Below are positions 3,831-42,269 of a stretch of 51,639 bases of DNA, piece after piece (position 1 is the first letter of the stretch; every line of letters starts with the position of its first letter). The stretch comes from Nemertoderma westbladi (taxonomy: Eukaryota; Animalia; Xenacoelomorpha), in contig JAUCBJ010003856.1 of the NCBI GenBank assembly GCA_032718475.1, forward strand, positions 1 to 51,639, in the 5' to 3' direction. The translations under genes and the position numbers were made by a program. The notes beneath the pieces are model-generated. The model was given only the letters and a program-made list of their open reading frames with translations. It searched no databases and was not told the origin of the DNA.

Positions 3831-4210
3831 GCGATCCAAATAGTCCATGGGCCAGCCAGCATAGTGGATACTTTTTGGTAACCATCTGGAACTTATATTT
3901 TTGGGAAGACCTAGCTTCTGGCCATTCAATTTGATATGATAACAAATCTGAATCGGTAGCTGACTTGGTGTTATCACTGGTTGTCATGGAAATTGTAAAA
4001 CAACAAACATGCTGTAGTATTCTAATAACTCGATATAAATTCATCGCATCTTTTGAAAAAGATAGCTACTGGTCTAACAATTCTAAATGTGACATAAAAT
4101 TCTGGAATATAACTATTGTTACCATGGGAACGCTGCTAAATAAAAACTGACATGTTTTAGAAAAATAGCTATCATTCTAGAACAATAGAATTATTTTAAA
4201 AACAAATTGC

Positions 4211-4758
4211 TGTGACGGGATCCGAGAATCCCGACCGGTGTTGTTTATGTACGCGTCAGCCGCACCGTGTGATGGAAAAAAGGAGTTCGTTATTGTTCCG
4301 ATGTTATTGATAGATGTATAAAATATAGTATACGATGAACAGATGTAAGTATAATGGCAGATAGCACAACCAGTAATATATGGTAACTAATAGGTGACGG
4401 CGGCGACGGTCTTAAACTGTCACCATACTGCCGTGACTGTACTGAGATAACTGAAGTGAATAACTAAACATCAACCGGTAATATACTCTAGGTTGGCCGT
4501 ATTACTCAGCTGATGCCCTGCTGTCCCCCCATTGGCTAGTAACCTAATTCTCGCCCTGAACTTTGTGGGAGTGTTTCCCCCCCGCTGCTGTTACTCTCTC
4601 TCCTTGACCTCTAACCTCTATTGTCTGAGGCCCTTTGGGGTTTGTCGTCCCCGCTTATTGGGGAGACACGAGGTTGATTGGTAATCAACCTCGTGCTCCC
4701 AATATTGCTTAAAGCCAACTTTGTGTGGGCCTGGTTAGCGGAATTGAATACGCTAACA
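4211..4758 (-). repeat. 3' LTR of the 4211-9887 element
   Basis: Direct repeat of 9328-9887, adjacent to the PPT. Confidence 0.95.
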
Positions 4759-5889
4759 CTCCCCCCATGCTATCTTCCCGGTGAGAAGATAGCATCCACC
4801 TTTAGTGCGCTACAATTCCACTGGATCCCGATCTACCATCGGGTGTGGGGTGGAATTAGTTTCTTCGGAGCCGGCTTTCCAGGCCGCTCCCTATGGGTAT
4901 GATATCGCTACCCCGTTTTCCTGGCGTCCCGTGTCGGGCCGATCGTGACTTCCTCTCACACGACTTTTGTTTCCCCAACACTTTCACCGCTAACTCCGCT
5001 CCACTTTCACCCTAACTCTTCCATACTCTCGGACCTCCTCGTCCCTCACTCTGCCTCTTGCTTCTCCCCCCCCCCCCCCCCCCCCCACACTTGAATTGCA
5101 CCCGCACTCTCTCCGCGCTATCTCCACACCACCTCTCGCTATCTCTCTTGCGTTCTCCTCTCATACTCTTCTCACATTCCCCTCATACTCCTCTCATACT
5201 TCTCTCATACTCCTCTCATACTCCTCACTCTCCACGCCTGTGGTCCCACCAAGTGCCCCTCCTACTCGTATCCCGGTAGTGCCCATCTGCACGATTCTTA
5301 TCCCGCAGGATACGAGCTTTCACAATAAATCCTGGACTCCGCCCTGTTGTTTAATGACCACACACTTATCGGGTCCCACACATGTGTGCACCATGTTACT
5401 GGGAGCCGTCTAAGTCCCGTCCTGTCGCCCTAGTCAATTAGTCCCCAGTCCCAGTAGCTAATTGGAAAAAGGTTGTGCTTGACTACGGTACATACTGTAT
5501 AATATATATACGAATATTATATAATTATTATAAGATTATAATTATTGTTATTATATATATTATATTATAAGCTCGTCTACATAACGCGTTTCATTCCTAC
5601 TACTCACTACTCTCTCTCCGCCTTCCTCGCCTGGCGACTTCTTCCAGTCGCTTCCCCTCAAGTCTATCCGCTTCCGGCTTCTCCCACCTCTGATATGTGT
5701 AATCCACCTCCCTGTCTACTAGATGCCGGCTGTTGTATTACACCGACTCGCCCTCCAGCCCCGGGTGGTCTACCAGACCTCCGAAGGCCCTTCTGTAGTT
5801 TGGAGGTGATCCTGATATTCTTAACTTTTATTTTTAATTTTGTCTTACCCATGTTCCCCCTGTCTGTGCTATTATCCTATCTGCCCTTT

Positions 5890-6722
5890 CTAGCTACTAC
5901 TTCTACGGTCTCTACTCTCTTACTGCTAACTCTACTGACTCCACTAGTTCTACTAACTCTGCTAACTAGCTCTACTAACTCTACTCCACTAGCTCTACTA
6001 ACTTCCTAGCTCTCTAACTCTGCTGACTCTCTAACTTCTACTAACTCTCTAACTCTACTACCTCTACTGACTCTCTACCTCTACTAACTCTACTGACTCT
6101 CTACCTCTACTAACTCTACTGACTCTCTACCTCTACTAACTCTACTGACTCTCTACCTCTAACTAACTCTCTACCTCTACTAAGTCTCCAACTCTCTAAC
6201 TTTCTACTTCTGCCAACTCTACTGACTCTCTACCTCTGCTAACTTTCTAAGTAACGGTACTACGTACCCTCTTACTACTCTTACTAACTCCTCTAACTAT
6301 CGGTACTACGTACCCTCTTACTACCCCTACTAACTCCTCTAGCTAACGGTACTACGTACCCTCTTACTACCCCTACTAACTCCTCTAGCTAACGGTACTA
6401 CGTACCCTCTTCCTCTACATCTACTCCCTCTACTCTATCTACATCTTATCTCCTGCACGTGACGCTCTGAGTGCCGGCAAAGTGGGTATGTTAATTATGT
6501 GAACTACTACTAACTCTTACTAACCGGTACTACGTACCCTCTTACTAACCTCTAACTCCACTAACTCTTACTAACTGGTACTACGTACCCTCTTACTAAC
6601 CTCTAACTCCACTAACTCTTACTAACCGGTACTACGTACCCTCTTACTAACCTCTAACTCCACTAACTCTTACTAACCGGTACTACGTACCCTCTTACTA
6701 ACCTCTAACTCTACTAACTAAC
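5890..6722. repeat. CT-rich low-complexity tract and 46/51-bp tandem repeats inside the LTR element
   Basis: (CTCTACTAACT)-like microrepeats are followed by units containing GGTACTACGTACCCTCTTACTA, repeated about 8 times. Confidence 0.9.
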
Positions 6723-8760
6723 TCCTTGTGCCCGGCACCTCTTGTGCCCGGCACCCACCCTAATTAACATACCCTGCTCTTACATCAAACACGTCATCAC
6801 GCCCGTGCCCTACTTATTTCAACGCACCCCCTGTACCCTTCTCATCTCTCCCATCTTTCTCCCTTCTAGCTCACCCTACTTGTTCTCCCTACGTTCTTGG
6901 TTGTTTATACTGCGGATATTTGTAATGAGGGAATGTCACCCTGCCCCCCCCCCCCCCCCACCGGTGTTATGTTTGGTACTGGGGCTGATGTTAATATATT
7001 GGGGCCCATCCATCTATCTGCAATATCCCCCTCAACCGGGTATTTGCATATATTTGTTCTTGGTTGTTTATATTGCTTATCCGCAATATCCCCATCAACC
7101 GGGTATTTGTTGTGTCCCTGGATATTATAGTCATGCTGCTGTGCCGGTACCGATGTAGGCCTATCCACTTCTGGCCTACCTACCGGTATGTACTCCGCGA
7201 CCTCCGGGTTTAATCCCGTCGTTCGCGCTACCCTATCGCCTACACTATCTCTCCCAGCATGGCCTATAATAGTATGTGCAGTAAGGCCTACAGTATGTCG
7301 TGCAGTCTGCATGTGCCCTTCCGAACCGAAGTTTAATTCTCTCGAATTCTCGAATCTCCCCACGACTACCATACTCTCGGTCGGTAGCTATATCCCGTCG
7401 GGAAGTTTCTTTTCGATCCCCGCTTCTATTCTCGTCTTCGTATCGGTACACTCTGTACCGCTCTCCTGGCGTGCGGTGCGTTTCTCCGGGGCGACAGAAA
7501 TCTCCCGGAGTTCGACCCCACTGACTCCCTAACTCCATCTCTACTCCACCACTCTCCATCGCCGGGCGCCGCGGCTCACCCAACTCGCCCCGCGCACTAT
7601 CCGCCGACGCCTGTGGGACATTCTCTGCCCCCCCCCCCCCCTCTCGCTACTAATCTCTCGTGGTGGGGCGCCCGTAGCCCCCCCCCCCCACCCGCCACTT
7701 CTAACTGCACTATCTCTTACTACACTTTTGCGTCCCTCTCTAGTCGACGCACTGTCTCTACTGCGGCTGGGTCTATTCACCCCCGCCTCTCTCTCTACTA
7801 CTGCGTGGCCTACCAGGCCCACCTCGGGTTGACTCAACCCCGTCACTCCCTGCCTACTAACTACGTTGCCTTGCAGGCTACCGTTGGCCGGACCATCTGT
7901 GTCTACATTAGTATTAATAGCCCCGTTATCAATATTATTATTTAAATCATTTAAATTCGAATTATTATTATTTTCTAAATTTAAATTATTACCGGTATTC
8001 GAATTATTTGGATTTAAATTATTATTTAGATTATTTGAATTATTTTGTAAATTCGAACCTACATTATTTAAGTTACTTTCTACATTTATATTGAAACCGT
8101 TCATATTTAAATTACTACTTGGGCAAAATATTATTTCCTGCAATGAAAGTTTGGTTAGAATTATCCACTACGGTACTATTAATATTAACGTTCTCTAATC
8201 TATTGTTATTACCCCCCCCCCCCCCCCCCCCCCGCCCGTACGGTTACACCAGTCTTGGGTCTGTCGTCTGGTCCCTGTAAGTGGGGTATTAGCAAACGTT
8301 TCTCTCTCTCCATCCTCCCGCAGACTTTGCTCGGCCAACTCTGTCTCTCTCGCAACCCTCTCAAGCCACCTCGCCTCGCGCTCTTTACACTCGCTCGCCC
8401 TTCTCGCCTCACTCTCTTTACGCTGACACGCCAGATTTATTTCTAACACCCTTCTTTCTTTTGCGGAGGATGTAGCAGACTTAGACTTATCGGTTGCGAC
8501 GGACTCCCGTCGCCCCTCCGTCCTACTAACTTTCCCCCGCTTTCCGGGGTTCTCGCTGACCGACGGGACCGAATCCTCGGAGTTAACCTCGGATTCGCCC
8601 TCGTGCGGTCCCGCCCAACCCACTAACTTAACTCCCCTGGCATCAACTAAGTATGGCCCTATGTACACTACACCAGGCTCCATACCCCTACATTCCCACA
8701 GTTCAAACAGTTCGCTGGCGACCCCTCTCGCTCTCTCACTCGGCTAGTTCTCCCTGCCCG
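6720..8760 (-). pseudogene. Fragmented gag N-terminal-like coding region of the LTR element
   Basis: A chain of minus-strand ORFs (8195-8683, 7541-8143, 7245-7583, 6905-7372) is broken mostly near poly-G runs. It contains a charged coiled-coil (SSAKERRVLEINLACQRKESE...), a PAM2-like LNPEVAEYIP, and a decayed CxxC (CLNC) upstream; similar features occur in BEL/Pao Gag N-termini. Confidence 0.45.
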
Positions 8761-9327
8761 AAGCGCACTCAGATAATCAAAATGTTTATTCGACTCACCT
8801 AGCCGCTTCTCTAGCTTCACCTGGTCCAGTCTCTCGCTCCCTCCTTAGCTTCCTTTATCTGCCTTCTCGTCGCGTCGTAGGCTTGTAGGCCCGTCGGAGC
8901 TGGTCACTGACCCCGACGTCCCCGTCGCCGACGCTCCCTCTTTCTCTCCGTGTTCGCTGTCGTACTGGCGGCCCCACCGTCGCCGTTCCGGTGGGCCGTC
9001 TGTCGCCCTCGGCCTGTGGCTGGCCGGCGACATCGGCACGTCGACCGCCGTCGTGTGTCGACTCGTCTCTCCCTTCTCTCGACTCGTCTCTCCCTTCTCT
9101 CGACTCGTCTTCTCGTCCTCGTTGTAGACGGCCCCCCTCCGCTTGGATTGCCGGGTCGTTCGTCGTCGACGAATCCAGCCTCGTGGGTCGATACCGTCTC
9201 GCCGTGGCCTCGCGGATCGTTATGTTGTCGTCCGGGGTCCGCGGCGGTGTCGTCTCTCCTTCTTGGCTCATCTTTACTCTGGTGGCTGGCAGTCACAGTT
9301 TCCTAGGCAGTTCTTAGAGTTTAAGAC

Positions 9328-9887
9328 TGTGACGGGATCCGAGAATCCCGACCGGTGTTGTTTATGTACGCGTCAGCCGCACCGTGTGATGGAAAAAAGG
9401 AGTTCGTTATTGTTCCGATGTTATTGATAGATGTATAAAATATAGTATACGATGAACAGATGTAAGTATAATGGCAGATAGCACAACCGGTAATATAAGG
9501 TAACTAATAGGTGACGGCGGTGACGGTCTTAAACTGTCACCATACTGCCGTGACTGTACTGAGATAACTGAAGTGAATAACTAAACATCAACCGGTAATA
9601 TACTCTAGGTTGGCCGTATTACTCAGCTGATGCCCTGCTGTCCCCCCATTGGCTAGTAACCTAATTCTCGCCCTGAACTTTGTGGGAGTGTTTCCCCCCC
9701 CCCCCCCCCCCCGCTGCTGTTACTCTCTCTCCTTGACCTCTAACCTCTATTGTCTGAGGCCCTTTGGGGTTTGTCGTCCCCGCTTATTGGGGTGACACGA
9801 GGTTGATTGGTAATCAACCTCGTGCTCCCAATATTGCTTAAAGCCAACTTTGTGTGGGCCTGGTTAGCGGAATTGAATACGCTAACA
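9328..9887 (-). repeat. 5' LTR of the 4211-9887 element
   Basis: Direct repeat of 4211-4758. On the minus strand, CCAAT (~9647-9651), TATATTA (~9596-9602) and Inr-like TCAGTT (~9566-9571) occur in the expected order. Confidence 0.95.
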
Positions 9888-10149
9888 ATTGCCACATTTT
9901 ATTGAATATTAGTTTTGGAAAATTTTGGTATACTGAGAGCTAAACCTGTTTTGTTATAACGGTGATATATGGTTCCAAAGATATACCCATGTTAGAAATA
10001 TTTTTATTTTTCATCAATTTAATCTCATTCCACTCTGTTTCAAAATAATGACTTTATATTGGTATAATTGGTATGCGATGATGTCATCCGAGCAAATAGA
10101 GTATTCTTAGTAGAGTAGGTAATGTATGTGATACAATTATTGCTGTATT

Positions 10150-10545
10150 AGAAATCATCTTCATCATCTGAGGTATCAAGTGCATCAGTTCATTCCAATT
10201 CCTCCTCCTTCCATTTGGTGCATTACTTGAATTTTTACAACTCAATGCAATGAAGGTTATTTTGTAGGCAGATACGTTAGTGGTTTACATGATGTAGTAC
10301 AATTTCAATACAGCAGAGCGAGAGAGAGAGAGAGAGGATTGATGATGGAGCTGGAAGAACATGCATCCAATCAGGTATTATCATATCCTCCTCATCTAAC
10401 AGACAGACCTACAGTATAATGGACAAGGTACATTGATGATGGATACTAAACTTTTTTCCAAATATACGCTTGGTAGTTGGCTTTGGATATAGGTGTATAA
10501 ACAATACGTACAAGGTGGCAGCAAGCGAAATTTGAATGAACTGAA
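10150..10545 (-). pseudogene. Academ transposase C-terminal remnant
   Basis: The minus strand reads LPPC...KANYQAYIWKKSLVSIINVPCP...IPDWMHVLPAPSSIL followed by a Cys-rich and acidic tail. This matches the LPP..RA.YQ..IW..P.P..W..PAP..C-rich pattern of Academ transposases. It is frameshifted and carries a (GA)n insertion. Confidence 0.65.
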
Positions 10546-10915
10546 GCTCTTGGCGTGATTTTTGACTAACATATTTGCACTACTTGTTTTATTCGTACCC
10601 CAGGTGACACTTTAAAAATTACCAAAAAATTTCACGAATGCAATATTGCAGTTCTATAATCGCTTTCAGCATCCAAAACAACCGCTATATATCGCAAATA
10701 AATTAATTTTAGTGAATTATGAAAACTATTGAAAATCTTAGTACGAAAGTACTGGAGATGGGTGCCAGAAAGGGAGCACAGCACGAAAACTAACATGACC
10801 ATGTAAATGGCGTTTGCGCTGTTGGATAACCCATTAAATTTTAGGAAAAGTCACGAAATCTCGGTTTTCCAAACAAACCTTACTCAAAGATACAGACTAA
10901 TTACAAAATTAAGCC

Positions 10916-11770
10916 GGGCGCGTATTCCCAATCCTTACACTACTAGGAACACCTCTTGCATTAACACATGCGATTGGTTAATGAGTTATTATTTGATTGG
11001 ACGTTGAAATCATGTAAGGAGTGGAAAGAGGGGTCGAACTAGTGTAAGGTTTTTATAAAGTGTTCCAAACGCTCCAAATAAAATAAACTCTTTAAACCTC
11101 TAGATGTCTAGATGGCGCGCTAGTGTAGTACGATGCACACGAATAGCAGACGGACTATTCATAAGCAATTACTACTGTACAGTGTACAGTACTATAATCG
11201 GCCTGCTGCATTGAAACTGCACATTGAGATGCTATGCTGACTTGGCAAAAGTATTTTGCCACAACCATGCAATCCGCAATCGGCAAGCCAAATGCAGCGT
11301 ACATTAAGAATTATATGCCGGCTTATCAACAAAGTTGCACATGCCACAATTCCCTATCCCCCATGACTTTCGTGAGATTAGCTGCATCTTCCATGCCAGT
11401 GTCCTTTAGGAGGCGTCTTAAGAAAGTCATGGGCTGTCCATCATGCTTATTTTCTCTATGGGGCTGCCAAAGCACAATATTGTGCGCAGTGTGGTCCTTC
11501 TGTGTGGGGGCAGCTCATGCAGCCCTGTATAAACCATAACCCAATGTTCTACTGCCTAGAATAATATCAAATGTTAAGTCTACTCATCTAATACTGTTGG
11601 TGTAATAACCCTTACATGATTTCACCCAATTTCTCCATTCCTTACAGCGTTTGGAACACTTTCTACTGTACCTGCAAACTGAGTATAAAACTCTTACACT
11701 AGTTCGACCTCTATCTCCATTCCTTACATGATTTTTTTCCTACTAGTGTAAGTTTTGGGATAACGCCCCC
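10916..11770. mobile_element. MITE with ~150-bp imperfect TIRs (PIF/Harbinger-like ends) nested in the Academ element
   Basis: GGGCGCGTATTCCCAATCCTTACACTACTAGGA...GTCGAACTAGTGTAAG...GTGTTCCAAACGCT is matched by AGCGTTTGGAACAC...CTTACACTAGTTCGAC...TCCTACTAGTGTAAGTTTTGGGATAACGCCCC. The TSD is not clear. Confidence 0.65.
11197..11540 (-). mobile_element. 3' end fragment of an RTE/RTEX-like LINE
   Basis: The minus strand encodes VLWQPHRENKHDGQPMTFLRRLLKDTGMEDAANLTKVMGDRELW and is homologous to 2561-2780. Confidence 0.75.
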
Positions 11771-13261
11771 CCAAAGAATAAAGATGATTTAGTATTCAAA
11801 AATGTCATTATCGAAGGAATCATCTTTACAGAAATCATCTAGGAACAATTATGATAAATATATAAATTGAAGTGAATATACTAAAAGAACTAACCTCTCT
11901 ATTGTGGTAGGTGTCAAGTCATTTGTTTGTGTTATATCTAAGTCATCTTCAATTGCATCTGTAGTGGTAGTCATGGTAACCTGTGAAGGAGTATTATCTG
12001 AAATGCCATTTAGATGTCACTTGTCGTTTTAAAGTGATTTGTAGTCACATCTTGATTGTATTTTATTGGCATAAATATTGTTATATAAAGTCATTATTTT
12101 GAAACAGAGTGGAATGCGATTAAATTGATGAAAAATAAAAATATTTCTAACATGGGTATATCTTTGGAACCATATATCACCGTTATAACAAAACAGGTTT
12201 AGCTCTCAGTATACCAAAATTTTTCAAAACTAATATTCAATACAATGTGGCAATTTGTTTTTAAACTAATTCGATTGTTCTAGAATGGTAGCTATTTTTC
12301 TAAAACATGTCAGTTTTTATTTAGCAGCGTTCCCATGGTAACAATAGTTATATTCCAGAATTTTATGTCACATTTAGAATTGTTAGACCAGTAGCTATCT
12401 TTTTCAAAAAATGCGATAAATTTATATCGAGTTATTAGAATACTACATACAACATGTTTGTTGTTTTACCATTTCCAAGACAACCGGTGATAACAACAAG
12501 TCAGCTACCGATTCAGATTTGTTATCATATCAAAATGAATGGCCAGAAGCTAGGTCTTCCCAAAAATATAAGTTCCGGGTGGTTACCAAAAAGTATCCCC
12601 TATGCTGTCTGGCCCATGGACTAAAACCGCTTTCCAGTTGTTTAGCCGAGACAGAAGTATCAAATATACAAATTAATGAGGTATTCCATCTATACAAATC
12701 CGCAAATAGCCCTGGGTATAATGTACTATTTAGCCTCAATTGATCCCCCTTCTCTCAATGTAATAAAATCCCGTTTTTTAGCAAACCGTTTTTCACTTGC
12801 ATCCTGTCCGACCATTTTACTTAATTATAGTTACCGGGTGCAGCAATCCGGACGAATTTATAATGAGTCATATCCATGATACCAGGATTAGACTGACAAA
12901 TGAGAAAATTATGTTTGTCTTCAATCTTAAATGATTTACGTGTAAAATATCCAAATTTAGTAGTTTAAAAAAAAACTGATCAACCTTTAGCGGTTGAGTA
13001 GGCTTATACACTATTTTATGGTAATCCTCACACCCCAACCCCAACCTATTTCATGAAGTATTGGAGTGTAATCAAATAATTTCCAATCAGATTCGCAGTT
13101 GCAAACTATATTGTATGTAATTTTTCAGATGATATTGATGTTTCCTTGATGAACTAAGATTTAGTTCTACTTGCCACAGTGCTGTGTAGGTCTTGATGTG
13201 GGATATCTTGTTGCTCTGTTCTTTAGCTTGGCAAATCTGATAATTTGCCTCTGGTTCACTA

Positions 13262-16392: not shown

Positions 16393-17694
16393 TTATAGAT
16401 CCTGATAAGTGTGATGTTCCACGACTGTTTCCTGGTGTTTGCAAAACAGTTTATCCATCATTAACTTCAATCTTTTACGATATTTGCCGCAAAGAATGAA
16501 ACAAAGTGCTGGATCCGCTATGACATTCATGTAAGAAGTAAAAACCATAACCATTTGAACTACTTTCAATGTTGTTCCAGACATAGAAATGTGGTGGTGA
16601 ATTTTGATCAAATGCAAGCATAATTGCCAGGTCCAAAATGGCAGGTAGCAAAATGTAAATGCCAAGATTACAGCAACAACCATTCGTGTGATTTGTTTAT
16701 TTATCTGACGCATACTGTTCCGTGCTTTGCTTTCGTTCAGACTTGGCATTGGGTCTCGGCTAACCTCTTCGTTACTTGTGGATGCGATGATTAAGTGTTG
16801 GGATGATGCTGGGGTATCCCCACGGGAGGTAGTACTATTTATCCTATCCATGATTAATTGATTATTTGATGTCTGACTGACCAGTGGAAAATCTGATGTC
16901 CCGTGTGAAATTCCTTCCATACACAGCGCCAGTTCTGCTGTTTCCACAGAATTTTCGACATGCGCCATTGCACTTCCTGAAAGTACCTGAGACCCATTGT
17001 TGCCACTGGTCATGTGACGCTGGCTATTGATACTTATAATCATAGCCCTGTAGGTACCTGCGATGACACACAATGGAATAATGTAGAGAACTAAGCTCAG
17101 GAAAACAATATATACTGTGAATGAATTAATTGTTTCCGAAAAATTTGGCCAAGCACTACCACAGTAGATTTTTCCACAAGGGGTAGAAGATTTCCAGGTG
17201 AATATGGCGAATGGTAATGCGAACAACATACTCGGAAACCAAATGTAAGCTAAATGTCGCTTGTTTAGATAGCCACCTCGACGTCTCTTGCTCATTACTT
17301 GATATCTCTCGAAACTCATTTTTACCAAAGTAAATATACTTGCTGACATTGTTAGCGCATCCAAAGCGAATATTATTTTGCATCCTACATCACCAAATAG
17401 CCAGGTTTTCGTTACAAGAGAAGCTAGAATAAATGGACAACCTGTAACGTAGATTAAGTCTGACATTAGAAGATTACCAGCTAACACGTCAATCATTTTC
17501 ATCTGTTGTTTTGGTGTAGTTACAATGACAATCAAACCCAATATATTGGCACATATTCCCACAACTGATACAGACCCATAAAGAAAGTATTTCAGAGCCA
17601 TTTCCCATACCCTCCTGTCTTTTGTTTCTGCGCAAATATATTCATCTTCTGTAACATTACTAGTGATATTTATTAATGTATTGGCTAAAGACAT
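16393..17694 (-). CDS. UTS2R-like: Intronless rhodopsin-family (class A) peptide GPCR, urotensin-II receptor-like, 433 aa
   Basis: Seven hydrophobic segments and N-terminal N-glycosylation sequons (NIT, NVT). TM3 WLFGDVGCKIIFALDALTMSASIFTLVKMSFERY and TM6 CYLPFWTWQL closely resemble vertebrate UTS2R ([41 protein letters not shown], recalled from memory). The ORF is intact, with AATAAA on the minus strand at 16360-16365. Confidence 0.9.
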   Translation of the reverse strand: MSLANTLINITSNVTEDEYICAETKDRRVWEMALKYFLYGSVSVVGICANILGLIVIVTTPKQQMKMIDVLAGNLLMSDLIYVTGCPFILASLVTKTWLFGDVGCKIIFALDALTMSASIFTLVKMSFERYQVMSKRRRGGYLNKRHLAYIWFPSMLFALPFAIFTWKSSTPCGKIYCGSAWPNFSETINSFTVYIVFLSLVLYIIPLCVIAGTYRAMIISINSQRHMTSGNNGSQVLSGSAMAHVENSVETAELALCMEGISHGTSDFPLVSQTSNNQLIMDRINSTTSRGDTPASSQHLIIASTSNEEVSRDPMPSLNESKARNSMRQINKQITRMVVAVILAFTFCYLPFWTWQLCLHLIKIHHHISMSGTTLKVVQMVMVFTSYMNVIADPALCFILCGKYRKRLKLMMDKLFCKHQETVVEHHTYQDL

Positions 17695-18160
17695 ATTGTT
17701 AGTATTACAGTATCAGGCGCTGTGATATTATAAACAACATAAGCGTTAAAAAAATATCTGTTGGCCTAAGTATGTAAAGTACAGTAAGTAACAAAGCAAT
17801 ACTACTTAGGTACTATGTGATATACAATCAAAATACAGTAGCACAAAGTTTAGTTAAACCAACATTGGGCCTCAATTAAGCATACTGCACATCTGTAAAT
17901 AATTCACGGTTTCACGGTACAAGACCATTTAAATATCAGTGCACCCCTAAATTATTGTTGTGGAATATCTATAAACTTACTTACAATATAGGACGTGACG
18001 TGCATTGCATTTATGCTGGTAATTACAGTATATGATGGGAACAGATGTGAATTATAATGATGGTAATTATAGTTATTGTTTTGGAATGCTGCGCGCATAT
18101 TAAGTATGATCACTAAAGATGCCTCATACTGTATACTGGGAATATTGACTTCATGGGGTG

Positions 18161-22035: not shown

Positions 22036-25000
22036 AGTACCCGGAGTCATGGATAAAAAGCACCAGAAAAGTCATATAAACCACTAGAAGTTAGGAAAGC
22101 AAAGGCAAAGGTAGCTGTACCAAAAATGGATAATATCTGGAAATAAGACCTATCTCGGCACATGAACAAGTTCTTTCGAGCACACAGTGGAAAATGTAAT
22201 TTTTTACGGGGGTGAGACCAGGACACTGACAAAATTCTTTGGACAAAGAATTGCTGGTTACTATTGTTATCTTTAATTAATATAATAAACCGGCTAAAGA
22301 CCCTCAATACTTTATTTTAATTCTATCATCAATCATCCTTACATTAAGTGTTTATAGCGCTTATTTCTGTCTTATATCCTGTACATATACTAATTCGTTT
22401 ATTGTTTTGGTTAGATTCAGCCTTTCTGTAACCTGTCCGTTTTTGGTGAAAACCTGGTATTCTTCACATGGGGGTAACTGCCTAAGTGATATATAACGGC
22501 AGAAAGTCTGGTATTCTTCACATGGGCCTGTTTAGGGCTATTTTGGTTGTTCATTGTTGCTCGTTGTTGCTCATTGTTGCTCATTGTTGCTCGTTGTTGC
22601 TCATTGTTACTCGTTGTTGTACTTCATTATTGCTCATTGTTGATCGTTGTCGCTCATTGTTGCTCGTTGTTGCTCATTGTTGTTCATTGTTGCTCGTTGT
22701 TGTTCATTGTTGCTCGTTGTTGTACTTTATTATTGCTCGTTGTTGCTCATTGTTGATCGTTGTTGCTCATTGTTGCTCGTTATTGCTCATTGTTGCTCAT
22801 TGTTACTCGTTGTTGCACTTTATTATTGCTCGTTGTTGCTCATTGTTGCTCGTTCTTGCTCATTGTTGCTCGTTCTTGCTTTTTGTTGCTCAATGTTGCT
22901 CGTTGTTGCTCATTGTTGCTCGTTGTTGCTCATTGTTGCTCGTTGTTCCTCACTGTTGCTCATTGTTGGTCATTGTTGCTCATTGTTACTCGTTGTTGTA
23001 CATTATTATTGTTCGTTGTTGCTCATTGTTGCTCGTTGTTGCTCATTGTTGCTCGTTGTTGCTCATTGTTTCTCATTGTTGCTCGTTGTTGCTCATTGTT
23101 TCTCGTTGTTGCTCATTGTTGCTCGTTGTTGCTCATTGCTGCTCATTGTTTCTCATTGTTGCTCGTTGTTGCTCATTGTTGCTAGTTGTTGCTCATTGTT
23201 GCTCGTTGTTGGTCATTGTTGCTCGTTGTTGCTCATTGCTGCTCATTGTTGCTCATTGTTGCTCATTGTTGCTCGTTGTTGCTCATTGTTGCTCGACGTT
23301 GGTCATTGTTGCTCATTGTTACTCGCTGTTGTACTTTATATTGCTCGTTGTTGCTCATTGTTGCTCATTGTTGCTCGTTGTTGCTCATTGTTGCTCGTTG
23401 TTGCTCATTGTTGCCCATTGTTGCTCGTTGTTGCTCATTGTTGCTCATTGTTGCCCTTTGTTGCTCATTGTTGCTCATTGTTACTCGTTGTTGCACTTTA
23501 TTATTGCTCGTTGTTGCTCATTGTTGCTCGTTCTTGCTCATTGTTGCTCAATGTTGCTCGTTGTTGCTCATTGTTGCTCGTTGATGCTCATTGTTGCTCG
23601 TTGTTGCTCATTGTTGCTCGTTGTTGGTCATTGTTGCTCATTGTTACTCGTTTTTGTACATTATTATTGTTCGTTGTTCCTCATTGTTGCTTGTTGTTGT
23701 TCATTGTTGCTCGTTGTTGCTCATTGTTGCCCATTGTTGCTCGTTGTTGCTCGTTGTTGCTCATTGTTGCCCATTATTGCTCGTTGTTGCTCATTGTTGC
23801 TCATTGTTGCTCATTGTTACTCGTTTTTGTACATTATTATTGTTCGTTGTTGCTCATTGTTGCTCGTTTTTGCTCATTGTTGCTCGTTGTTGCTCATTGT
23901 TGCTCGTTGTTGCTCATTGTTGCTCGTTGTTGCTCATTGTTGCTCGTTGTTGCTCGTTGTTGCTCATTGCTGCTCATTGTTTTTCATTGTTACTCGTTGT
24001 TGCTCATTGTTGCTCGTTGTTGCTCATTGTTGCTCGTTGTTGCTCATTGTTGCTCGTTGTTGGTCATTGGTGCTCATTGTTACTCGATGTTGTACTTTAT
24101 TATTGCTCGTTGTTCCTCATTGTTGCTCGTTGTTGCTGCTCATTGTTGCTTGTTATTGTTCATTGTTGCTCGTTGTTGCTCATTGTTGCCCATTGTTGCT
24201 CGTTGTTGCTCGTTGTTGCTCGTTGTTGCTCATTGTTGCCCATTGTTGCTCGTTATTGCTCATTGTTTGTCGTTGTTGCTCGTTGTTGCTCATTGTTGCT
24301 CATTGTTTCTCATTGTCGCTCGTTGTTGCTCATTTTTTCTCGTTGTTGCTCATTGTTGGTCATTGTTGCTCATTGTTACTCGCTGTTGTACTTTATTATT
24401 GCTCGTTGTTGCTCATTGTTGCTCGTTGTTGGTCATTGTTACTCGTTGTTGTACTTTATTATTGCTCGTTGTTGCTCATTGTTGCTCGTTGTTGCTCATT
24501 GTTGTTCATTGTTGCTCGTTGTTGTTCATTGTTGCTCGTTGTTGCTCATTGTTACTCGTTGTTGTACTTTATTATTGCTCGTTGTTGCTCATTGTTGATC
24601 GTTGTTGCTCATTGTTGCTCGTTGTTGCTCATTGTTGCTCATTGTTGCTCTTTGTTGCTCATTGCTACTCATTGTTGCACTTTATTATTGCTCGTTGGTG
24701 CTCATTGTTGCTCGTTGTTGCTCGTTGTTGCTCATTGTTTGTCGTTCTTGCTTTTTGTTGCTCAATGTTGCTCGTTGTTGCTCATTGTTGCTCGTTGTTG
24801 CTCATTGTTGCTCGTTGTTCCTCACTGTTGCTCATTGTTGGTCATTGTTGCTCATTGTTACTCGTTGTTGTACATTATTATTGTTCGTTGTTGCTCATTG
24901 TTGCTCGTTGTTGCTCATTGTTGCTCGTTGTTGCTCATTGTTTCTCATTGTTGCTCGTTGTTGCTCATTGTTGCTCGTTGTTGCTCATTGTTGCTCGTTG

Positions 25001-27046
25001 TTGCTCATTGCTGCTCATTGTTTCTCATTGTTGCTCGTTGTTGCTCATTGTTGCTAGTTGTTGCTCATTGTTGCTCGTTGTTGGTCATTGTTGCTCGTTG
25101 TTGCTCATTGCTGCTCATTGTTTCTCATTGTTGCTCGTTGTTGCTCATTGTTGCTCGTTGTTGCTCATTGTTGCTCGAAGTTGGTCATTGTTGCTCATTG
25201 TTACTCACTGTTGTACTTTATATTGCTCGTTGTTGCTCATTGTTGCTCGTTGTGGCTCATTGTTGCTCGTTGTTGCTCGTTGTTGCTCATTGTTGCCCAG
25301 TGTTGCTCGTTGTTGCTCGTTGTTGCTCATTGTTGCTCATTGTTGCCCTTTGTTGCTCATTGTTGCTCATTGTTACTCGTTGTTGCACTTTATTATTGCT
25401 CGTTGTTGCTCATTGTTGCTCGTTGTTGCTCATTGTTGCTCGTTGTTGCTCATTGTTGCTCGTTCTTGCTCATTGTTGCTCAATGTTGCTCGTTGTTGCT
25501 CATTGTTGCTCGTTGTTGCTCATTGTTGCTCGTTGTTGCTCATTGTTGCTCGTTGTTGGTCAATGTTGCTCATTGTTACTCGTTTTTGTACATTATTATT
25601 TTTCGTTGTTCCTCATTGTTGCTTGTTGTTGTTCATTGTTGCTCGTTGTTGCTCATTGTTGCCCATTGTTGCTCGTTGTTGCTCATTGTTGCCCATTGTT
25701 GCTCGTTGTTGCTCATTGTTGCTCGTTGTTGCTGATTGTTGCTCATTGTTGCTCATTGTTACTCGTTTTTGTACATTATTATTGTTCGTTGTTGCTCATT
25801 GTTGCTCGATTTTGCTCATTGTTTCTCGTTGTTGCTCATTGTTGCTCGTTGTTGCTCATTGTTGCTCGTTCTTGCTCATTGTTGCTCGTGTTGCTCGTTG
25901 TTGCTCATTGCTGCTCATTGTTTTTCATTGTTGCTCGTTGTTGCTCATTGTTGCTCGTTGTTGCTCATTGTTGCTCGTTGTTGCTCATTGTTGCTCGTTG
26001 TTGGTCATTGGTGCTCATTGTTACTCGCTGTTGTACTTTAGTATTGCTCGTTGTTCCTCATTGTTGCTCGTTGTTGCTCATTGTTGCTTGTTATTGTTCA
26101 TTGTTGCTCGTTGTTGCTCATTGTTGCCCATTGTTGCTCGTTGTTGCTCGTTGTTGCTCATTGTTGCCCATGGTTGCTCGTTATTGCTCATTGTTTGTCG
26201 TTGTTGCTCGTTGTTGCTCATTGTTGCTCATTGCTGCTCATTGTTGCTCGTTGTTTCTCATTGTTGCTCGTTGTTGCTCATTTTTTCTCGTTGTTGCTCA
26301 TTGTTGGTCATTGTTACTCATTGTTACTCGCTGTTGTACTTTATTATTGCTCGTTGTTGCTCATTGTTGCTCGTTGTTGCTTATTTTTGCTCGTTGTTGC
26401 TCGTTGTTGCACATTGTTGCCCATTGTTGCTCGTTGTTGCTCATTGTTCCCCATTGTTGCTCGTTGTTGCTCATTGTTTCTCATTGTTGCTCGTTGTTGC
26501 TCATTTTTGCTCGTTGTTGCTCATTGTTTCTCGTTGTTGGTCATTGTTGCTCATTGTTACTCGCTGTTGTACTTTATTATTGCTTGTTGTTGCTCATTGT
26601 TGCTCGTTGTTGCTCATTGCTGCTCGTTGTTGCTCATTGTTGCTCGTTGTTGCTCATTGCTGCTCATTTTTTCTCATTGTTGCTCGTTGTTGCTCATTGT
26701 TGCTCGTTGTTGCTCGTTGTTGGTCATTGTTGCTCGTTGTTGCTCATTGCTGCTCATTATTTCTCATTGTTGATCGTTGTTGCTCATTGTTGCTCGTTGT
26801 TGGTCATTGTTGCTCGTTGTTGTTCATTGTTGCTCATTGTTACTCGCTGTTGTACTTTATTATTGCTCGTTGTTGCTCATTGTTGCTCGTTGTTGCTCAT
26901 TGTTGCTCGTTGTTGCTCATTGTTGCTCGTTGTTGCTCGTTGTTTCTCATTGATGCTCATTGTTGCCCTTTGTTGGTCATTGTTGCTCATTGTTACTCGC
27001 TGTTGTACTTTATTATTGCTCGTTGTTGCTCATTGTTGCTCGTTGT

Positions 27047-27624
27047 TGTGACGGGATCAGGGGATCCCGACCGGTTTATTGCGTTACGCGTCACCGTATT
27101 GTTTGTTGAGAAAATAATAGTTTGTTGTTGTTATCGCCTTTGATGTTGATATAGACTAGCTGATATAATATATATGATAGCACAGTTGACGGTTTATGGG
27201 GATAGTCAGATAATGAATGTTATACCGGTATTATGGTGACGGTACGAAAATGTCACCGATCTGCACTGGATGACTGAAATGATCTGACCGGCAATATAAT
27301 ATATATATTGGTTATTCCTACATTACTTTGGCATCCCTATCTAGCGGATGCTTTCTTCGCCCTTATTGGCTAGTATCTTAATTCTTGGCTCCCACCTCTG
27401 TGGGAGTGCTTCCCCCCCCCCCCCCCCCGTTGCTGTTACTTCCCCTCTCGAGGTAGTTTGACCTCTAATCTCTTTTTGTGTGTGGCTTTCGGGGCCGTGT
27501 GTTGCCCCCGTTATTGGGGGTGATACGATATTAATTGTGATTAACCTCGTATCCCCAATATTGCTGAAAAGGCGCCACTTCCCAACTTTATGGGGATAGT
27601 GAGGCGGAATTGAATCCGCTCACA
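27047..27624 (-). mobile_element. Solo LTR (family related to the 4211/9328 LTRs), TSD GTTGT
   Basis: Starts TGTGACGGGATC and ends GAATTGAATCCGCTCACA, with GTTGT on both sides. It shares blocks (ATTGGCTAGT, TGTGGGAGTG-polyC-GCTGTTACT, TTATTGGGG...CCCAATATTGC) with the first LTR family. Confidence 0.9.
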
Positions 27625-30286
27625 GTTGTTGCTCATTGTTGCTCGTTGTTGCTCATTGTTGCTCGTTGTTGCTCGTTGTTTCTCATTGTTGCCCATTGTT
27701 GCTCGTTGTTGCTCATTGTTGCTCGTTGTTGCTCGTTGTTTCTCATTGTTGCCCATTGTTGCTCGTTGTTGCTCGTTGTTGCTCATTGTTGCTCGTTGTT
27801 GCTCATTGTTGCTCGTTCTTGCTCATTGTTGCTCAATATTGCTCGTTGTTGCTCATTATTGCTCGTTGTTGCTCATTGTTGCTCATTGTTGCTCGTTGTT
27901 GGTCATTGTTGCTCATTGTTACTCGTTTTTGTACATTATTATTGTTCGTTCTTGCTCATTGTTGCTCGTTTTTGCTTATTGTTGCTCGTTGTTGCTCATT
28001 GTTGCTCGTTGTTGCTCATTGTTGCTCGTTGTTGCTCATTGCTGCTCATTGTTTTTCATTGTTGCTCGTTGTTGCTCATTGTTGCTCGTTGTTGCTCATT
28101 GTTGCTCGTTGTTGGTCATTGTTGCTCATTGTTACTCGCTGTTGTACTTTATTATTGCTCGTTGTTCCTCATTGTTGCTCGTTGTTGCTCATTGTTGCCC
28201 ATTGTTGCTCGTTGTTGCTCGTTGTTGCTCATTGTTGCCCATTGTTGCTCGCTGTTGCTCATTGTTGGTCGTTGTTGCTCGTTCTTGCTCATTGTTGCTC
28301 ATTGTTGCTCATTATTTCTCATTGTTGCTCGTTGTTGCTCATTGTTGCTTGTTGTTGTTCATTGTTGCTCGTTGTTGCTCATTGTTGCCCATTGTTGCTC
28401 GTTGTTGCTCATTGTTGCCCATTGTTGCTCGCTGTTGCTCATTGTTGGTCGTTGTTGCTCGTTGTTGCTCATTGTTGCTTATTGTTTCTCATTTTTGCTC
28501 GTTGTTGCTCATTATTGGTCATTGTTGCTCATTGTTACTCGCTGTTGTACTTTATTATTGCTCGTTGTTGCCCATTGTTGCTCGCTGTTGCTCATTGTTG
28601 GTCGTTGTTGCTCGTTGTTGCTCATTGTTGCTTATTGTTTCTCATTTTTGCTCGTTGTTGCTCATTATTGGTCATTGTTGCTCATTGTTACTCGCTGTTG
28701 TACTTTATTATTGCTCGTTGTTGCTCATTGTTGCTCGTTGTTGCTCATTGTTGCTCGTTGTTGCTCATTGTTGCTCATTGTTGCCCATTGTTGCTCGTTG
28801 TTGCTCATTGTTGATCGTTGTTGCTCATTGTTGCTCGTTATTGCTCGTTGTTGCTCGTTGTTGCTCGTTGTTGCTCGTTGTTGCTCGTTGTTGCTCGTTG
28901 TTGCTCATTGTTGCTCGTTGTTGCTCGTTGTTGCTCATTGTTGCCCATTGTTGCTCGTTGTTGCTCATTGTTGCTCATTGTTTCCCATTGTTGCTCGTTG
29001 TTGCTCATTGTTGCTCGATTTTGCTCATTGTTTCTCGTTGTTGCTCATTGTTGCTCGTTGTTGCTCATTGTTGCTCGTTGTTGCTCATTGTTGCTCGTTG
29101 TTGCTCGTTGTTGCTCATTGCTGCTCATTGTTTTTCATTGTTGCTCGTTGTTGCTCATTGTTGCTCGTTGTTGGTCATTGTTGCTCGTTGTTGCTCATTG
29201 TTGCTCGTTGTTGGTCATTGGTGCTCATTGTTACTCGCTGTTGTACTTTAGTATTGCTCGTTGTTCCTCATTGTTGCTCGTTGTTGCTCATTGTTGCTTG
29301 TTATTGTTCATTGTTGCTCGTTGTTGCTCATTGTTGCCCATTGTTGCTCGTTGTTGCTCGTTGTTGCTCATTGTTGCCCATTGTTGCTCGTTATTGCTCA
29401 TTGTTTGTCGTTGTTGCTCGTTGTTGCTCATTGTTGCTCATTGCTGCTCATTGTTGCTCGTTGTTTCTCATTGTTGCTCGTTGTTGCTCATTTTTTCTCG
29501 TTGTTGCTCATTGTTGGTCATTGTTACTCATTGTTACTCGCTGTTGTACTTTATTATTGCTCGTTGTTGCTCATTGTTGCTCGTTGTTGCTCATTTTTGC
29601 TCGTTGTTGCTCGTTGTTGCACATTGTTGCCCATTGTTGCTCGTTGTTGCTCGTTGTTGCTCATTGTTCCCCATTGTTGCTCGTTGTTGCTCATTGTTTC
29701 TCATTGTTGCTCGTTGTTGCTCATTTTTGCTCGTTGTTGCTCATTGTTTCTCGTTGTTGGTCATTGTTGCTCATTGTTACTCGCTGTTGTACTTTATTAT
29801 TGCTTGTTGTTGCTCATTGTTGCTCGTTGTTGCTCATTGCTGCTCGTTGTTGCTCATTGTTGCTCGTTGTTGCTCATTGCTGCTCATTTTTTCTCATTGT
29901 TGCTCGTTGTTGCTCATTGTTGCTCGTTGTTTCTCGTTGTTGGTCATTGTTGCTCGTTGTTGCTCATTGCTGCTCATTATTTCTCATTGTTGATCATTGT
30001 TGCTCATTGTTGCTCGTTGTTGGTCATTGTTGCTCGTTGTTGGTCATTGTTGCTCGTTGTTGTTCATTGTTGCTCATTGTTACTCGCTGTTGTACTTTAT
30101 TATTGCTCGTTGTTGCTCATTGTTGCTCGTTGTTGCTCATTGTTGCTCGTTGTTGTTCATTGTTGCTCGTTGTTGCTCGTTGTTTCTCATTGATGCTCAT
30201 TGTTGCCCTTTGTTGGTCATTGTTGCTCATTGTTACTCGCTGTTGTACTTTATTATTGCTCGTTGTTGCTCATTGTTGCTCGTTGT

Positions 30287-30865
30287 TGTGACGGGATCAG
30301 GGGATCCCGACCGGTTTATTGCGTTACGCGTCACCGTATTGTTTGTTGAGAAAATAATAGTTTGTTGTTGTTATCGCCTTTGATGTTGATATAGACTAGC
30401 TGATATAATATATATGATAGCACAGTTGACGGTTTATGGGGATAGTCAGATAATGAATGTTATACCGGTATTATGGTGACGGTACGAAAATGTCACCGAT
30501 CTGCACTGGATGACTGAAATGATCTGACCGGCAATATAATATATATATTGGTTATTCCTACATTACTTTGGCATCCCTATCTAGCGGATGCTTTCTTCGC
30601 CCTTATTGGCTAGTATCTTAATTCTTGGCTCCCACCTCTGTGGGAGTGCTTCCCCCCCCCCCCCCCCCCGCTGCTGTTACTTCCCCTCTCGAGGTAGTTT
30701 GACCTCTAATCTCTTTTTGTGTGTTGCTTTCGGGGCCGTGTGTTGCCCCCGTTATTGGGGGTGATACGATATTAATTGTGATTAACCTCGTATCCCCAAT
30801 ATTGCTGAAAAGGCGCCACTTCCCAACTTTATGGGGATAGTGAGGCGGAATTGAATCCGCTCACA
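30287..30865 (-). mobile_element. Second copy of the solo LTR with the same flanks
   Basis: Nearly identical to 27047-27624, offset by 3240 bp, with the same GTTGT TSD and the same satellite variants on both sides. Confidence 0.9.
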
Positions 30866-33800
30866 GTTGTTGCTCATTGTTGCTCGTTGTTGCTCATTGT
30901 TGCTCGTTGTTGCTCGTTGTTTCTCATTGTTGCCCATTGTTGCTCGTTGGTGCTCGTTGTTGCTCATTGTTGCTCGTTGTTGCTCATTGTTGCTCGTTCT
31001 TGCTCATTGTTGCTCAATATTGCTCGTTGTTGCTCATTGTTGCTCGTTGTTGCTCATTGTTGCTCATTGTTGCTCGTTGTTGGTCATTGTTGCTCATTGT
31101 TACTCGTTTTTGTACATTATTATTGTTCGTTCTTGCTCATTGTTGCTCGTTTTTGCTTATTGTTGCTCATTGTTGCTCGTTGTTGCTCATTGTTGCTCGT
31201 TGTTGCTCCTGGCTGCTCATTGTTTTTCATTGTTGCTCGTTGTTGCTCATTGTTGCTCGTTGTTGCTCATTGTTGCTCGTTGTTGGTCATTGTTGCTCAT
31301 TGTTACTCGCTGTTGTACTTTATTATTGCTCGTTGTTCCTCATTGTTGCTCGTTGTTGCTCATTGTTGCCCATTGTTGCTCGTTGTTGCTCGTTGTTGCT
31401 CATTGTTGCCCATTGTTGCTCGCTGTTGCTCATTGTTGGTCGTTGTTGCTCGTTCTTGCTCATTGTTGCTCATTGTTGCTCATTGTTTCTCATTGTTGCT
31501 CGTTGTTGCTCATTGTTGCTTGTTGTTGTTCATTGTTGCTCGTTGTTGCTCATTGTTGCCCATTGTTGCTCGTTGTTGCTCGTTGTTGCTCATTGTAGCC
31601 CATTGTTGCTCGCTGTTGCTCATTGTTGGTCGTTGTTGCTCGTTGTTGCTCATTGTTGCTTATTGTTTCTCATTTTTGCTCGTTGTTGCTCATTATTGGT
31701 CATTGTTGCTCATTGTTACTCGCTGTTGTACTTTATTATTGCTCGTTGTTGCTCATTGTTGCTCGTTGTTGCTCATTGTTGCTCGTTGTTGCTCATTGTT
31801 GCTCATTGTTGCCCATTGTTGCTCGTTGTTGCTCATTGTTGCTCGTTGTTGCTCATTGTTGCTCGTTATTGCTCGTTATTGCTCGTTGTTGCTCGTTGTT
31901 GCTCGTTGTTGCTCGTTGTTGCTCGTTGTTGCTCATTGTTGCTCGTTGTTGCTCGTTGTTGCTCATTGTTGCCCATTGTTGCTCGTTGTTGCTCATTGTT
32001 GCTCATTGTTGCCCATTGTTGCTCGTTGTTGCTCATTGTTGCTCGTTGTTGCTCGTTGTTGCTCGTTGTTGCTCGTTGTTGTTCATTGTTGCTCGTTGTT
32101 GCTCGTTGTGGCTCATTGTTGCCCATTGTTGCTCGTTGTTGCTCATTGTTGATCGTTGTTGCTCGTTGTTGCTCATTGTTGCCCATTGTTGCTCGCTGTT
32201 GCTCAGTGTTGGTCGTTGTTGCTCATTGTTGCTCGTTGTTGCTCGTTGTTGCTCATTGTTGCCCATTGTTGCTCGTTGTTGCTCATTGTTGATCGTTGTT
32301 GCTCGTTGTTGCTCATTGTTGCCCATTGTTGCTCGCTGTTGCTCATTGTTGGTCGATGTTGCTCGTTGTTGCTCATTGTTTCTCATTGTTTCTCATTTTT
32401 GCTCGTTGTTGCTCATTGTTGGTCATTGTTGCTCATTGTTACTCGCTGTTGTACTTTATTATTGCTCGTTGTTGCTCATTGTTGCTCGTTGTTGCTCATT
32501 GTTGCTCGTTGTTGCTCATTGTTGCTCATTGTTGCCCATTGTTGCTCGTTGTTGCTCATTGTTGCTCGTTGTTGCTCATTGTTGCTCGTTGTTGCTCGTT
32601 GTTGCTCGTTGTTGCTCATTGTTGCTTGTTGTTGTTCATTGTTGCTCGTTGTTGCTCATTGTTGCCCATTGTTGCTCGTTGTTGCTCGTTGTTGCTCATT
32701 GTTGGTCATTGTTGCTCATTGTTACTCGCTGTTGTACTTTATTATTGCTCGTTGTTGCTCATTGTTGCTTGTTGTTGCTCATTGTTGCTCGTTGTTGCTC
32801 GTTGTTGCTCATTGTTGCTCATTGTTGCCCATTGTTGCTCGTTGTTGCTCATTGTTGCTCGTTGTTGCTCATTGTTGCTCGTTGTTGCTCGTTGTTGCTC
32901 ATTGTTGATCGTTGTTGCTCGTTGTTGCTCATTGTTGCTCATTGTTGCTCATTGTTTCTCATTGTTGCTCGTTGTTGCTCATTGTTGCTTGTTGTTGTTC
33001 ATTGTTGCTCGTTGTTGCTCATTATTGCCCATTGTTGCTCGTTGTTGCTCGTTGTTGCTCATTGTTGCCCATTATTGCTCGCTGTTGCTCATTGTTGGTC
33101 GTTGTTGCTCGTTGTTGCTCATTGTTGCTCATTGTTTCTCATTTTTGCTCGTTGTTGCTCATTGTAGGTCATTGTTGCTCATTGTTACTCGCTGTTGTAC
33201 TTTATTATTGCTCGTTGTTGCTCATTGTTGCTCGTTGTTGCTCATTGTTGCTCGTTGTTGCTCGTTGTTGCCCATTGTTGCTCATTGTTGCCCATTGTTG
33301 CTCGTTGTTGCTCATTGTTGCTCGTTGTTGCTCATTGTTGCTCGTTGTTGCTCGTTGTTGCTCGTTGTTGCTCGTTGTTGCTCGTTGTTGCTCGTTGTTG
33401 CTCATTGTTGCTCGTTGTTGCTCGTTGTTGCTCATTGTTGCTCGTTGTTGCTCGTTGTTGCTCATTGTTGCCCATTGTTGCTCGTTGTTGCTCATTGTTG
33501 CTCATTGTTGCCCATTGTTGCTCGTTGTTGCTCATTGTTGCTTGTTGTTGTTCATTGTTGCTCGTTGTTGCTCATTGTTGCCCATTGTTGCTCGTTGTTG
33601 CTTATTGTTGCCCATTGTTGCTCGCTTTTAATCATTTTTGGTCGTTGTTGCTCGTTGTTGCTCATTGTTGCTCATTGTTGCTCATTGTTTCTCATTGTTG
33701 CTCGTTGTTGCTCATTGTTGCTTGTTGTTGTTCATTGTTGCTCGTTGTTGCTCATTGTTGCCCATTGTTGCTCGTTGTTGCTCGTTGTTGCTCATTGTTG

Positions 33801-41914: not shown

Positions 41915-42269
41915 ATAACCGTTTGTAAAATTCTTGATTGCAGTGTAGGCAATAAATACAGTTTAATATTGTTCTGGTAAGAACAATAACAGTTTATAGG
42001 ATCTTGATTGCGGCGTAAGCGATCAAGACTAAAGTACCGGTCGACCGGTAACCAGTAGGCCTGACTGCCTGATCATCCGGACCGGTACTTACAACAGTAC
42101 AGGTACAGCAGTATTATTCGATTTTGATAATTATATACCGGTAGGTCTTGATATTAAATCGGGGACTGCAGCCCTGGTTTTTTATTGGGATTTTTACTTA
42201 TTTCTGTCAGTTTTATTTACTAGTAGGCTAATATTGAGCAGAAGGCGTGTAACCCTGCTCAGATTGTAC

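Follow-up and report, generated by a model that had tools for sequence, protein, structure and literature searches.

The window, the whole 51,639-nt stretch of Nemertoderma westbladi DNA that was analysed (contig JAUCBJ010003856.1), contains two LTR pairs on self-comparison, one of which bounds a 5.7-kb LTR retrotransposon on the minus strand (9887-4211; hereafter E1, all features of which are given on this strand). E1 has a 560-nt 5' LTR (9328-9887) and a 548-nt 3' LTR (4211-4758), both with TG...CA ends, a 5-bp target-site duplication (9888-9892 and 4206-4210) and a polypurine tract adjoining the 3' LTR (4759-4766) that fixes its orientation, the features by which LTR retrotransposons are recognised. 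The element interrupts one arm of a host foldback/MITE-like repeat (3841-12623), the other arm of which (12083-12623) retains the empty site, with the duplicated 5-mer present once (12250-12254); together with the target duplication, this single copy secures the LTR end at 9328 and thus the 0-nt register discussed below. No intact gene is present in E1 (4211-9887): its gag-like reading frames (8195-9271, starting at the ATG at 9271) are decayed, with a weak likeness to the N-terminus of BEL/Pao gag proteins in 8195-8743, and the frames matched no Pfam family and no pol, even when translated through stops. E1 is a young, recently inserted, non-autonomous and defective LTR element.

Elsewhere in the window lie a 12-kb satellite of 10-nt units (22480-34800), a second array of 43-nt units (37430-38846) and a single-exon gene for a rhodopsin-family GPCR on the minus strand (16393-17712; Pfam 7tm_1, E 1.7e-37), which marks the host as an animal. 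Within E1 itself, the U3 region carries a long near-perfect palindrome (9790-9835) that found no exact match in viral and metagenome contigs. Contig depth over 9798-9824 exceeds 100,000 in three sequencing runs, versus hundreds to ~13,000 across 9285-9635, which argues that the palindrome is common to some far more abundant repeat.

E1 was mobile recently, as its LTRs are 99.3% alike (4 substitutions and one 12-nt poly-G indel) and its target duplication is intact, despite the absence of TGG from the first 40 nt after the 5' LTR. A single tRNA-like hit was returned by ARAGORN for the window and the loci fetched for comparison, and it did not match the primer-binding site (PBS), while Rfam gave no match in the window. 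Judged from the sequence, the only tRNA primers to be excluded are those of the usual 3'-CCA type. The bases that directly follow the 5' LTR are instead complementary to the LTR itself. Starting with the first base past 9328, the predicted PBS (9318-9327) is the exact reverse complement of 9526-9535, the LTR-side strand of a 10-bp helix 1 and the predicted self-primer core. Two further pairs of blocks are likewise exact reverse complements, namely 9306-9311 with 9544-9549 (helix 2, 6 bp) and 9290-9296 with 9550-9556 (helix 3, 7 bp), with the proviso that the leader side of helix 3 (annotated as 9290-9299) could alternatively contribute 9292-9299 to an 8-bp stem with 9326-9333. The earlier sequence-only reading had described these three colinear PBS/LTR pairings and had placed the complementarity directly after the 5' LTR without TGG, and on both counts our comparison agrees with it to the base.

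How far such complementarity departs from chance depends on whether its position is taken into account, bearing in mind that all chance tests for the E1 pairing were built after the pattern had been seen. Of the 4,457 other internal positions of E1, 3 begin an exact LTR match of at least 10 nt. Once this anchor is fixed, two colinear helices totalling 13 bp were reached in 22 of 5,000 shuffles and by none of 898 internal 35-mers. The pairing of the 31-nt LTR block with the 40-nt leader, at -28.0 kcal/mol, is the best among all LTR 31-mers. Without the anchor, the energy of the best 31-mer was equalled in 6 of 250 LTR shuffles and by 19 of 149 internal 40-mers, that of a 45-nt leader against the whole LTR in 95 of 300 LTR shuffles, and the folding energy of the whole fragment has a z of -1.06. 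The pairing signal of E1 resides in position, not in energy.

To compare copies, we turned to six runs (DNA or unclassified), of which three contain this stretch, and from four of them used genomic contigs of E1 relatives that align to 9150-9930; two of the four runs (X1 and X2) derive from one sample that may be the source of the window. The four runs yielded 912, 1,631, 865 and 29 such contigs, many of them 80-95% identical, and E1 therefore belongs to a large, diverged family. Within 9296-9760 (of which 9681-9760 was masked as repeat), cover in the relatives is high over two blocks, 9328-9396 and 9510-9556, and low in between, with contig joints from 9396 to 9500-9510 revealing relatives that retain both blocks around a middle part that differs and varies in length. 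The two blocks hold strands that are predicted to pair. Among the 40 of 47 variant positions that were listed for 9296-9760, 9542 and 9550 are the sole variable sites in 9510-9556, which is thus almost invariant and includes a variant-free LTR side of helix 2; 9550 is the sole variable site of helix 3 on that side. Seventeen contigs in three runs stop aligning at 9510, precisely the last pair of a predicted R-U5 helix (see below). The conservation of 9510-9556 could alternatively serve promoter function or packaging.

On the leader side, joints and pieces of relatives align up to exactly 9320, and 9313, 9314 and 9319 vary among the 40 of 147 variant positions listed. The change at 9319 is common, amounting to 8%, 34% and 46% of local depth in X1, X2 and X3 (480 of 1,422 in X2, 431 of 934 in X3), and no partner change at 9534 is found among the 40 of 47 positions listed. 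Together with the alignment up to 9320, this indicates that the family-wide duplex beside the LTR is probably 8 bp rather than 10, with a core of 9320-9327 on the leader and 9526-9533 in the LTR. The changes at the paired sites 9344 and 9542, and the commoner change at 9550, are swaps between G-U and Watson-Crick pairs. The last pair of helix 3 is lost through another change at 9550, a minor one that makes up 15-24% of depth in X1-X3, and the loose ends of contigs from minor relatives differ within helix 1 on one side or the other by changes that do not match each other. Pair-breaking variants were seen at 1 of 70 paired versus 4 of 46 unpaired sites (p = 0.08), and no two-sided compensatory change was seen in these short contigs, in which the two strands are not linkable. 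Comparison of the PBS/LTR pairs across copies therefore bears out a near-invariant LTR block and a probable 8-bp core, but neither the 10-bp extent of helix 1 nor covariation.

A promoter-like set lies directly upstream of the conserved LTR block (9566-9652), comprising a CCAAT at 9652, a TATATT at 9602 and an initiator-like TCAGTT at 9571. The spacing of such CCAAT, TATA and initiator-like motifs is near-canonical, with the CCAAT of the window copy at about -83 from the predicted start, and in the loose ends of three contigs from relatives a TATA-like run is again found ~30 nt before an initiator-like motif. The TATA/initiator pair proposed earlier from sequence thus looks right, and transcription of E1 would start near 9569 (9560 and 9555 are possible as well). 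With any of these three starts the primer core is internal, and of the helices just helix 3 is near the 5' end of the RNA. A start near 9569 implies a primer of 30-44 nt, compared to 11 nt in the yeast element Tf1.

Folding of the predicted RNA (main fragment 9569-9270, along with fragments with longer or shorter ends) gave a mixed picture of these pairings. In the main fragment helix 2 and helix 3 are predicted with probabilities of 0.87 and 0.73, as is a 13-bp R-U5 helix (p 0.95-0.98) that begins at the base directly after the primer core, with strands in 9510-9525 and 9371-9383, the latter within the second conserved block. The R-U5 helix was matched in 8 of 2,000 shuffles and by 15 of 223 internal 73-mers. 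A terminal U5 hairpin beside the PBS (9333-9350) is predicted in all fragments that start at 9569 (p 0.84-0.97), and the 9344 variant keeps its pair. Helix 1, by contrast, is outside the predicted minimum-energy fold, with a probability of 0.06 in 9569-9270 and of 0.04-0.07 in fragments ending at 9260-9285; its competitor involves 9354-9357, which vary in relatives, and enforcing it costs 2.1 kcal/mol with all other helices retained. An alternative 7-bp hairpin (9518-9542) displays the primer core in an 11-nt loop, a possible masked state in which the 9542 variant keeps its pair, and its predicted probability rises from 0.02 in the short fragment to 0.44-0.62 in longer ones. In fragments that extend to 9250 or beyond (at least 20 further bases), helices 2 and 3 and the R-U5 helix vanish, helix 1 falls to about 0 and the U5 hairpin stays, the three-helix form being 2.6-5.6 kcal/mol above the minimum. 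The prediction of a three-helix fold is thus fragile: of the helices in the sequence-only reading, 2 and 3 dominate 9569-9270, but helix 1 does not, and all three are lost in longer fragments.

On balance, we lean towards a model in which the 5' end of E1's RNA, and no tRNA, serves as the primer for reverse transcription, in the manner of Tf1. In this model Pol II would start near 9569 and the first 30-44 nt of the RNA would fold forward onto the leader, where helices 3 and 2 would clamp the ends and the 8-10-bp core would pair with the first post-LTR bases, while the 13-bp R-U5 helix and the terminal U5 hairpin would organise the junction. If Tf1 is a guide, an autonomous relative might supply in trans a reverse transcriptase (RT) whose RNase H domain then cuts after 9526, leaving a 3' end paired to the first post-LTR base, such that minus-strand synthesis would start exactly at the LTR end. 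The competing hairpin with the core in its loop may, more speculatively, be an off state that persists until Gag remodels the RNA. A self-primer would need a 0-nt register, and the register of E1 is 0 nt. The anchored 10-nt match, the two extra colinear helices, the lack of TGG, the conservation of the paired blocks and the promoter-like motifs upstream all speak for self-priming, as does the occurrence, in unrelated public contigs, of BEL/Pao elements (L008-L011) that have a self-complementary site and none for a tRNA. Against it stand the shortness of an 8-bp family core as a primer, the minor share of helix 1 in the fold, the loss of the fold in longer fragments, the weak unanchored energies, the departure from Tf1 geometry and the lack of compensatory change. 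Self-priming, as originally proposed for this locus, therefore endures as the best-supported reading, on the somewhat favourable side of even, with a duplex that is 8 bp family-wide and a helix 1 that is minor in the predicted fold. That the primer is the element's own RNA, whether contiguous or spliced, is a wider claim that we regard as fairly probable.

The pairing could also belong to a conserved 5'-leader RNA structure that acts in packaging, translation control or poly(A) masking, with priming achieved by another route. The predicted fold speaks for this, as the flanking helices are the best predicted (p 0.73-0.98) and the primer helix is not (p 0.06), and conserved hairpins at the primer site, whose role is not established, are described for fungal GalEa and bivalve TRIMs (PMC5445492, PMC6934838). 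No alternative source of a primer is apparent, however, and we consider a purely structural role unlikely.

Clearly unlikely as well, yet with a more specific prediction, is a primer made by splicing, in which a longer RNA that starts upstream would lose a 204-nt GT-AG intron (9737-9534), bringing together two exons whose junction is complementary to 14 nt of the PBS. The junction match is exact over 14 nt with an offset of 0 and is equalled at none of 600 internal positions, a fitting GT donor arose in 57 of 5,000 shuffles, and a join of 9533 to 9764 is present in one low-depth contig. A spliced primer also predicts that the family core is 8 nt, that the AG at 9535-9534 stays as it is and that 9319 can change freely; if it were true, exon 2 would contribute 8 nt of the contiguous 10-nt match and the acceptor AG the other two. 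On the other hand, by the general rules of splicing the donor is off consensus, the acceptor has no pyrimidine tract and several better AGs lie upstream, and the AG is missing in one minor relative (three contigs). Moreover, the promoter-like motifs would be intronic, as would helices 2 and 3, which are nevertheless conserved and non-random.

BEL/Pao loci from elsewhere lend support to splicing as a route to a primer, four of them (L008 and L009-L011) having a clean junction match over 14-15 nt in which donor and acceptor fit the consensus. We surveyed 79 BEL/Pao loci from metagenome contigs for splice-junction and self-primers, 55 of them with at least 300 nt upstream. TGG-type sites are present in 18 of the 55 (16 of these from one assembly), the four loci just named, which fall into two families, match a consensus intron joint, and the remaining 33 were not classed, mostly as they have no LTR end. 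Both families come from public contigs and are without TGG (L008 at 564-1030, which encodes an intact 2,010-aa polyprotein, and L010 at 972-1408, whose family also includes L009 and L011), and in both the bases 2-3 nt past the LTR match the joint of a 76-78-nt consensus GT-AG intron in the LTR over 14-15 nt, a match that none of 600 internal positions equals. Contiguous LTR matches longer than 7 nt were found in none of the nine BEL/Pao loci with a defined LTR pair. A long contiguous match in L036 was rejected as an inverted repeat of several hundred bases, and matches of 11-14 nt in L014, L024/26/28, L045, L066 and L077 were left uncounted, the positions not being established LTR ends. A BEL/Pao protein search of viral contigs revealed no relative; the sole short match in the prokaryote collection (L080) is a contig of 1,009 nt, filed under a bacterial genome, that encodes a BEL/Pao gag fragment and is likely animal contamination.

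It is quite unlikely in our view that an internal (half-molecule) tRNA fragment or some other small RNA of the host acts as the primer while the LTR match plays an incidental or secondary part. Half-tRNA primers are known in the Osser, Bryco, Gymco-II and Bianca copia lineages, and the same source reports their use for copia alone (PMC6317226). Apparently just 8 nt are conserved at the E1 site, which is short for a primer acting in trans, and the perfect LTR complement and the two colinear helices would be left unexplained. The E1 primer core may resemble an anticodon loop with a single closing pair.

That the match is coincidental, in an LTR rich in repeats where GTCAC/GTGAC occurs several times, is very improbable: without the anchor the energies lie close to background, the 8-bp stem between U5 and leader may have produced helix 3 as a side effect and the pattern was picked out of very many stretches of DNA, yet the anchored match (3/4,457) has a counterpart in a second such element in the window (5/8,189), the chain test gave 22/5,000 and the LTR block is near-invariant in diverged relatives.

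This second element, E2 (40692-51426, plus strand), is a deletion derivative inserted in a LINE with a 5-bp duplication, and it is clearly BEL/Pao-derived on the evidence of its coding content, which comprises DUF1759, Cys-His motifs and a protease (gag-protease), along with a remnant of the A17 region, but no RT. As E1 is without pol and E2 without RT, both need an enzyme in trans. An 11-nt site in E2 (41915-41925) pairs with 41161-41171, an anchored match reached by 5 of 8,189 internal positions, and this single 11-bp helix has a predicted probability of about 0. A TATA-like run at 41150 would place the start of the RNA downstream of the 41161-41171 block, whereas a CCAAT/initiator-like set at 41026/41078 would place it upstream. 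A splice-junction primer for E2 is unsupported, the best match being 10 nt and reached by 43 of 600 positions in the null. The start of the E2 leader (41915-42020) is followed by a diverged second copy ~66 nt further on, and the E2 site shares its first five letters with that of Tf1 (PMC11042837), probably by chance. From the two occurrences in one window it had been argued that coincidence is improbable and that the elements share a priming mechanism; the former conclusion holds, while the latter is unsupported, given the near-zero probability of the E2 helix and the fact that the superfamily of E1 is not firm.

A BEL/Pao origin of E1 is plausible, judging by its structure and a weak protein likeness. 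By protein, BEL/Pao elements are recognised from a DUF1759 gag, a triple Cys-His motif, an A17 domain and a BEL-type RT. The best frame of E1 is similar to the N-terminal part of some BEL/Pao gag proteins, which is acidic-serine-rich and coiled-coil. A gag N-terminal profile built from 12 segments, which include unrelated pattern hits, scores 5.6 bits on this frame. Of 2,000 shuffles, 8 equal this value, which ranks third, with two repeat-rich frames of the window scoring higher. No match was obtained for E1 against 16 BEL/Pao proteins and a profile, or against 80 fetched loci (blastp/tblastx), nor for its best frame among longer proteins or in a search of 1.84 billion proteins. BEL/Pao elements are described as tRNA-primed, with an 18-nt site for tRNA-Arg or tRNA-Gly (ICTV profile, PMC8742986). 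E1 is BEL/Pao-like in its 5-bp duplication, its TG...CA ends and its weak gag N-terminal motif, and its neighbour E2 is BEL/Pao-derived, but E1 is unlike BEL/Pao in having no 18-nt tRNA-Arg/tRNA-Gly site.

The manner in which LTR elements begin reverse transcription is one of their defining traits. Proof of self-priming exists for Tf1 alone and predictions of it for a few lineages of gypsy and copia, and according to the ICTV profile BEL/Pao elements are primed by tRNA. If E1 does prime itself, self-priming would extend to an animal family, probably in a third superfamily, and a long split primer would represent a new architecture. Such elements would not depend on tRNAs from the host and might escape silencing by tRNA fragments, and primer sites missed by tRNA-based annotation would be explained. 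A more far-reaching picture, which we put forward as a doubtful conjecture, is that an animal BEL/Pao-related lineage has swapped tRNA priming for a self-primer 3-4 times the length of that of Tf1, clamped by upstream helices and toggling between hairpin-masked and primed folds, while sister families build their primer at an LTR splice junction, such that tRNA-free priming would be recurrent and diversified.

Full-text searches of a largely open-access literature listed no report of BEL/Pao self-priming or of a long split self-primer. The words PBS, primer and tRNA are absent from a BEL/Pao survey (PMC3118150), and passages of PMC3601003, PMC3286476 and PMC11042837 hold nothing on BEL priming. 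The closest parallels are Tf1/Tf2 of S. pombe, Tj1, Tosmo1-3 and the Tf1/sushi chromoviruses of the Ty3/gypsy type, which, according to PMC7175516, PMC4600332 and PMC10085805, resemble E1 in having no tRNA site and a post-LTR PBS complementary to the LTR past the predicted start. The extra duplexes and the U5 hairpin predicted beside the E1 PBS are also like those of this group. [quoted passage not shown] Similarly, the side duplexes of the three-duplex Tf1 'pretzel' are formed with LTR sequence that lies downstream of the primer (PMC10085805), unlike helices 2 and 3 of E1, which lie upstream of the core. E1 also differs from Tf1/sushi elements, whose lineage is marked by a gypsy-type RT-RH-IN with a chromodomain, in that no chromovirus protein is present in it, and Tf1 priming was shown experimentally, whereas E1 is known from sequence.

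Predicted self-priming has been described for Tcn1 (gypsy) and TAR/Houba/Osr-1 (copia), using a rule of at least 10 complementary bp that begin 0-5 nt past the LTR (PMC6317226). The E1 copy, with 10 nt at offset 0 and a family core of apparently 8 nt, follows the same sequence rule as these elements, but they are plant lineages with known proteins, whereas E1 is an animal element without pol. The 'conserved hairpin site' of GalEa and the bivalve TRIMs (PMC5445492, PMC6934838) share with E1 the lack of a canonical tRNA site and the presence of conserved inverted repeats there; their pairing is local and downstream of the LTR, with no LTR complement in GalEa (PMC5445492), whereas that of E1 is long-range and involves the LTR. 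Thus, self-priming as a mechanism is already known, and it is in its geometry that E1 departs from Tf1.
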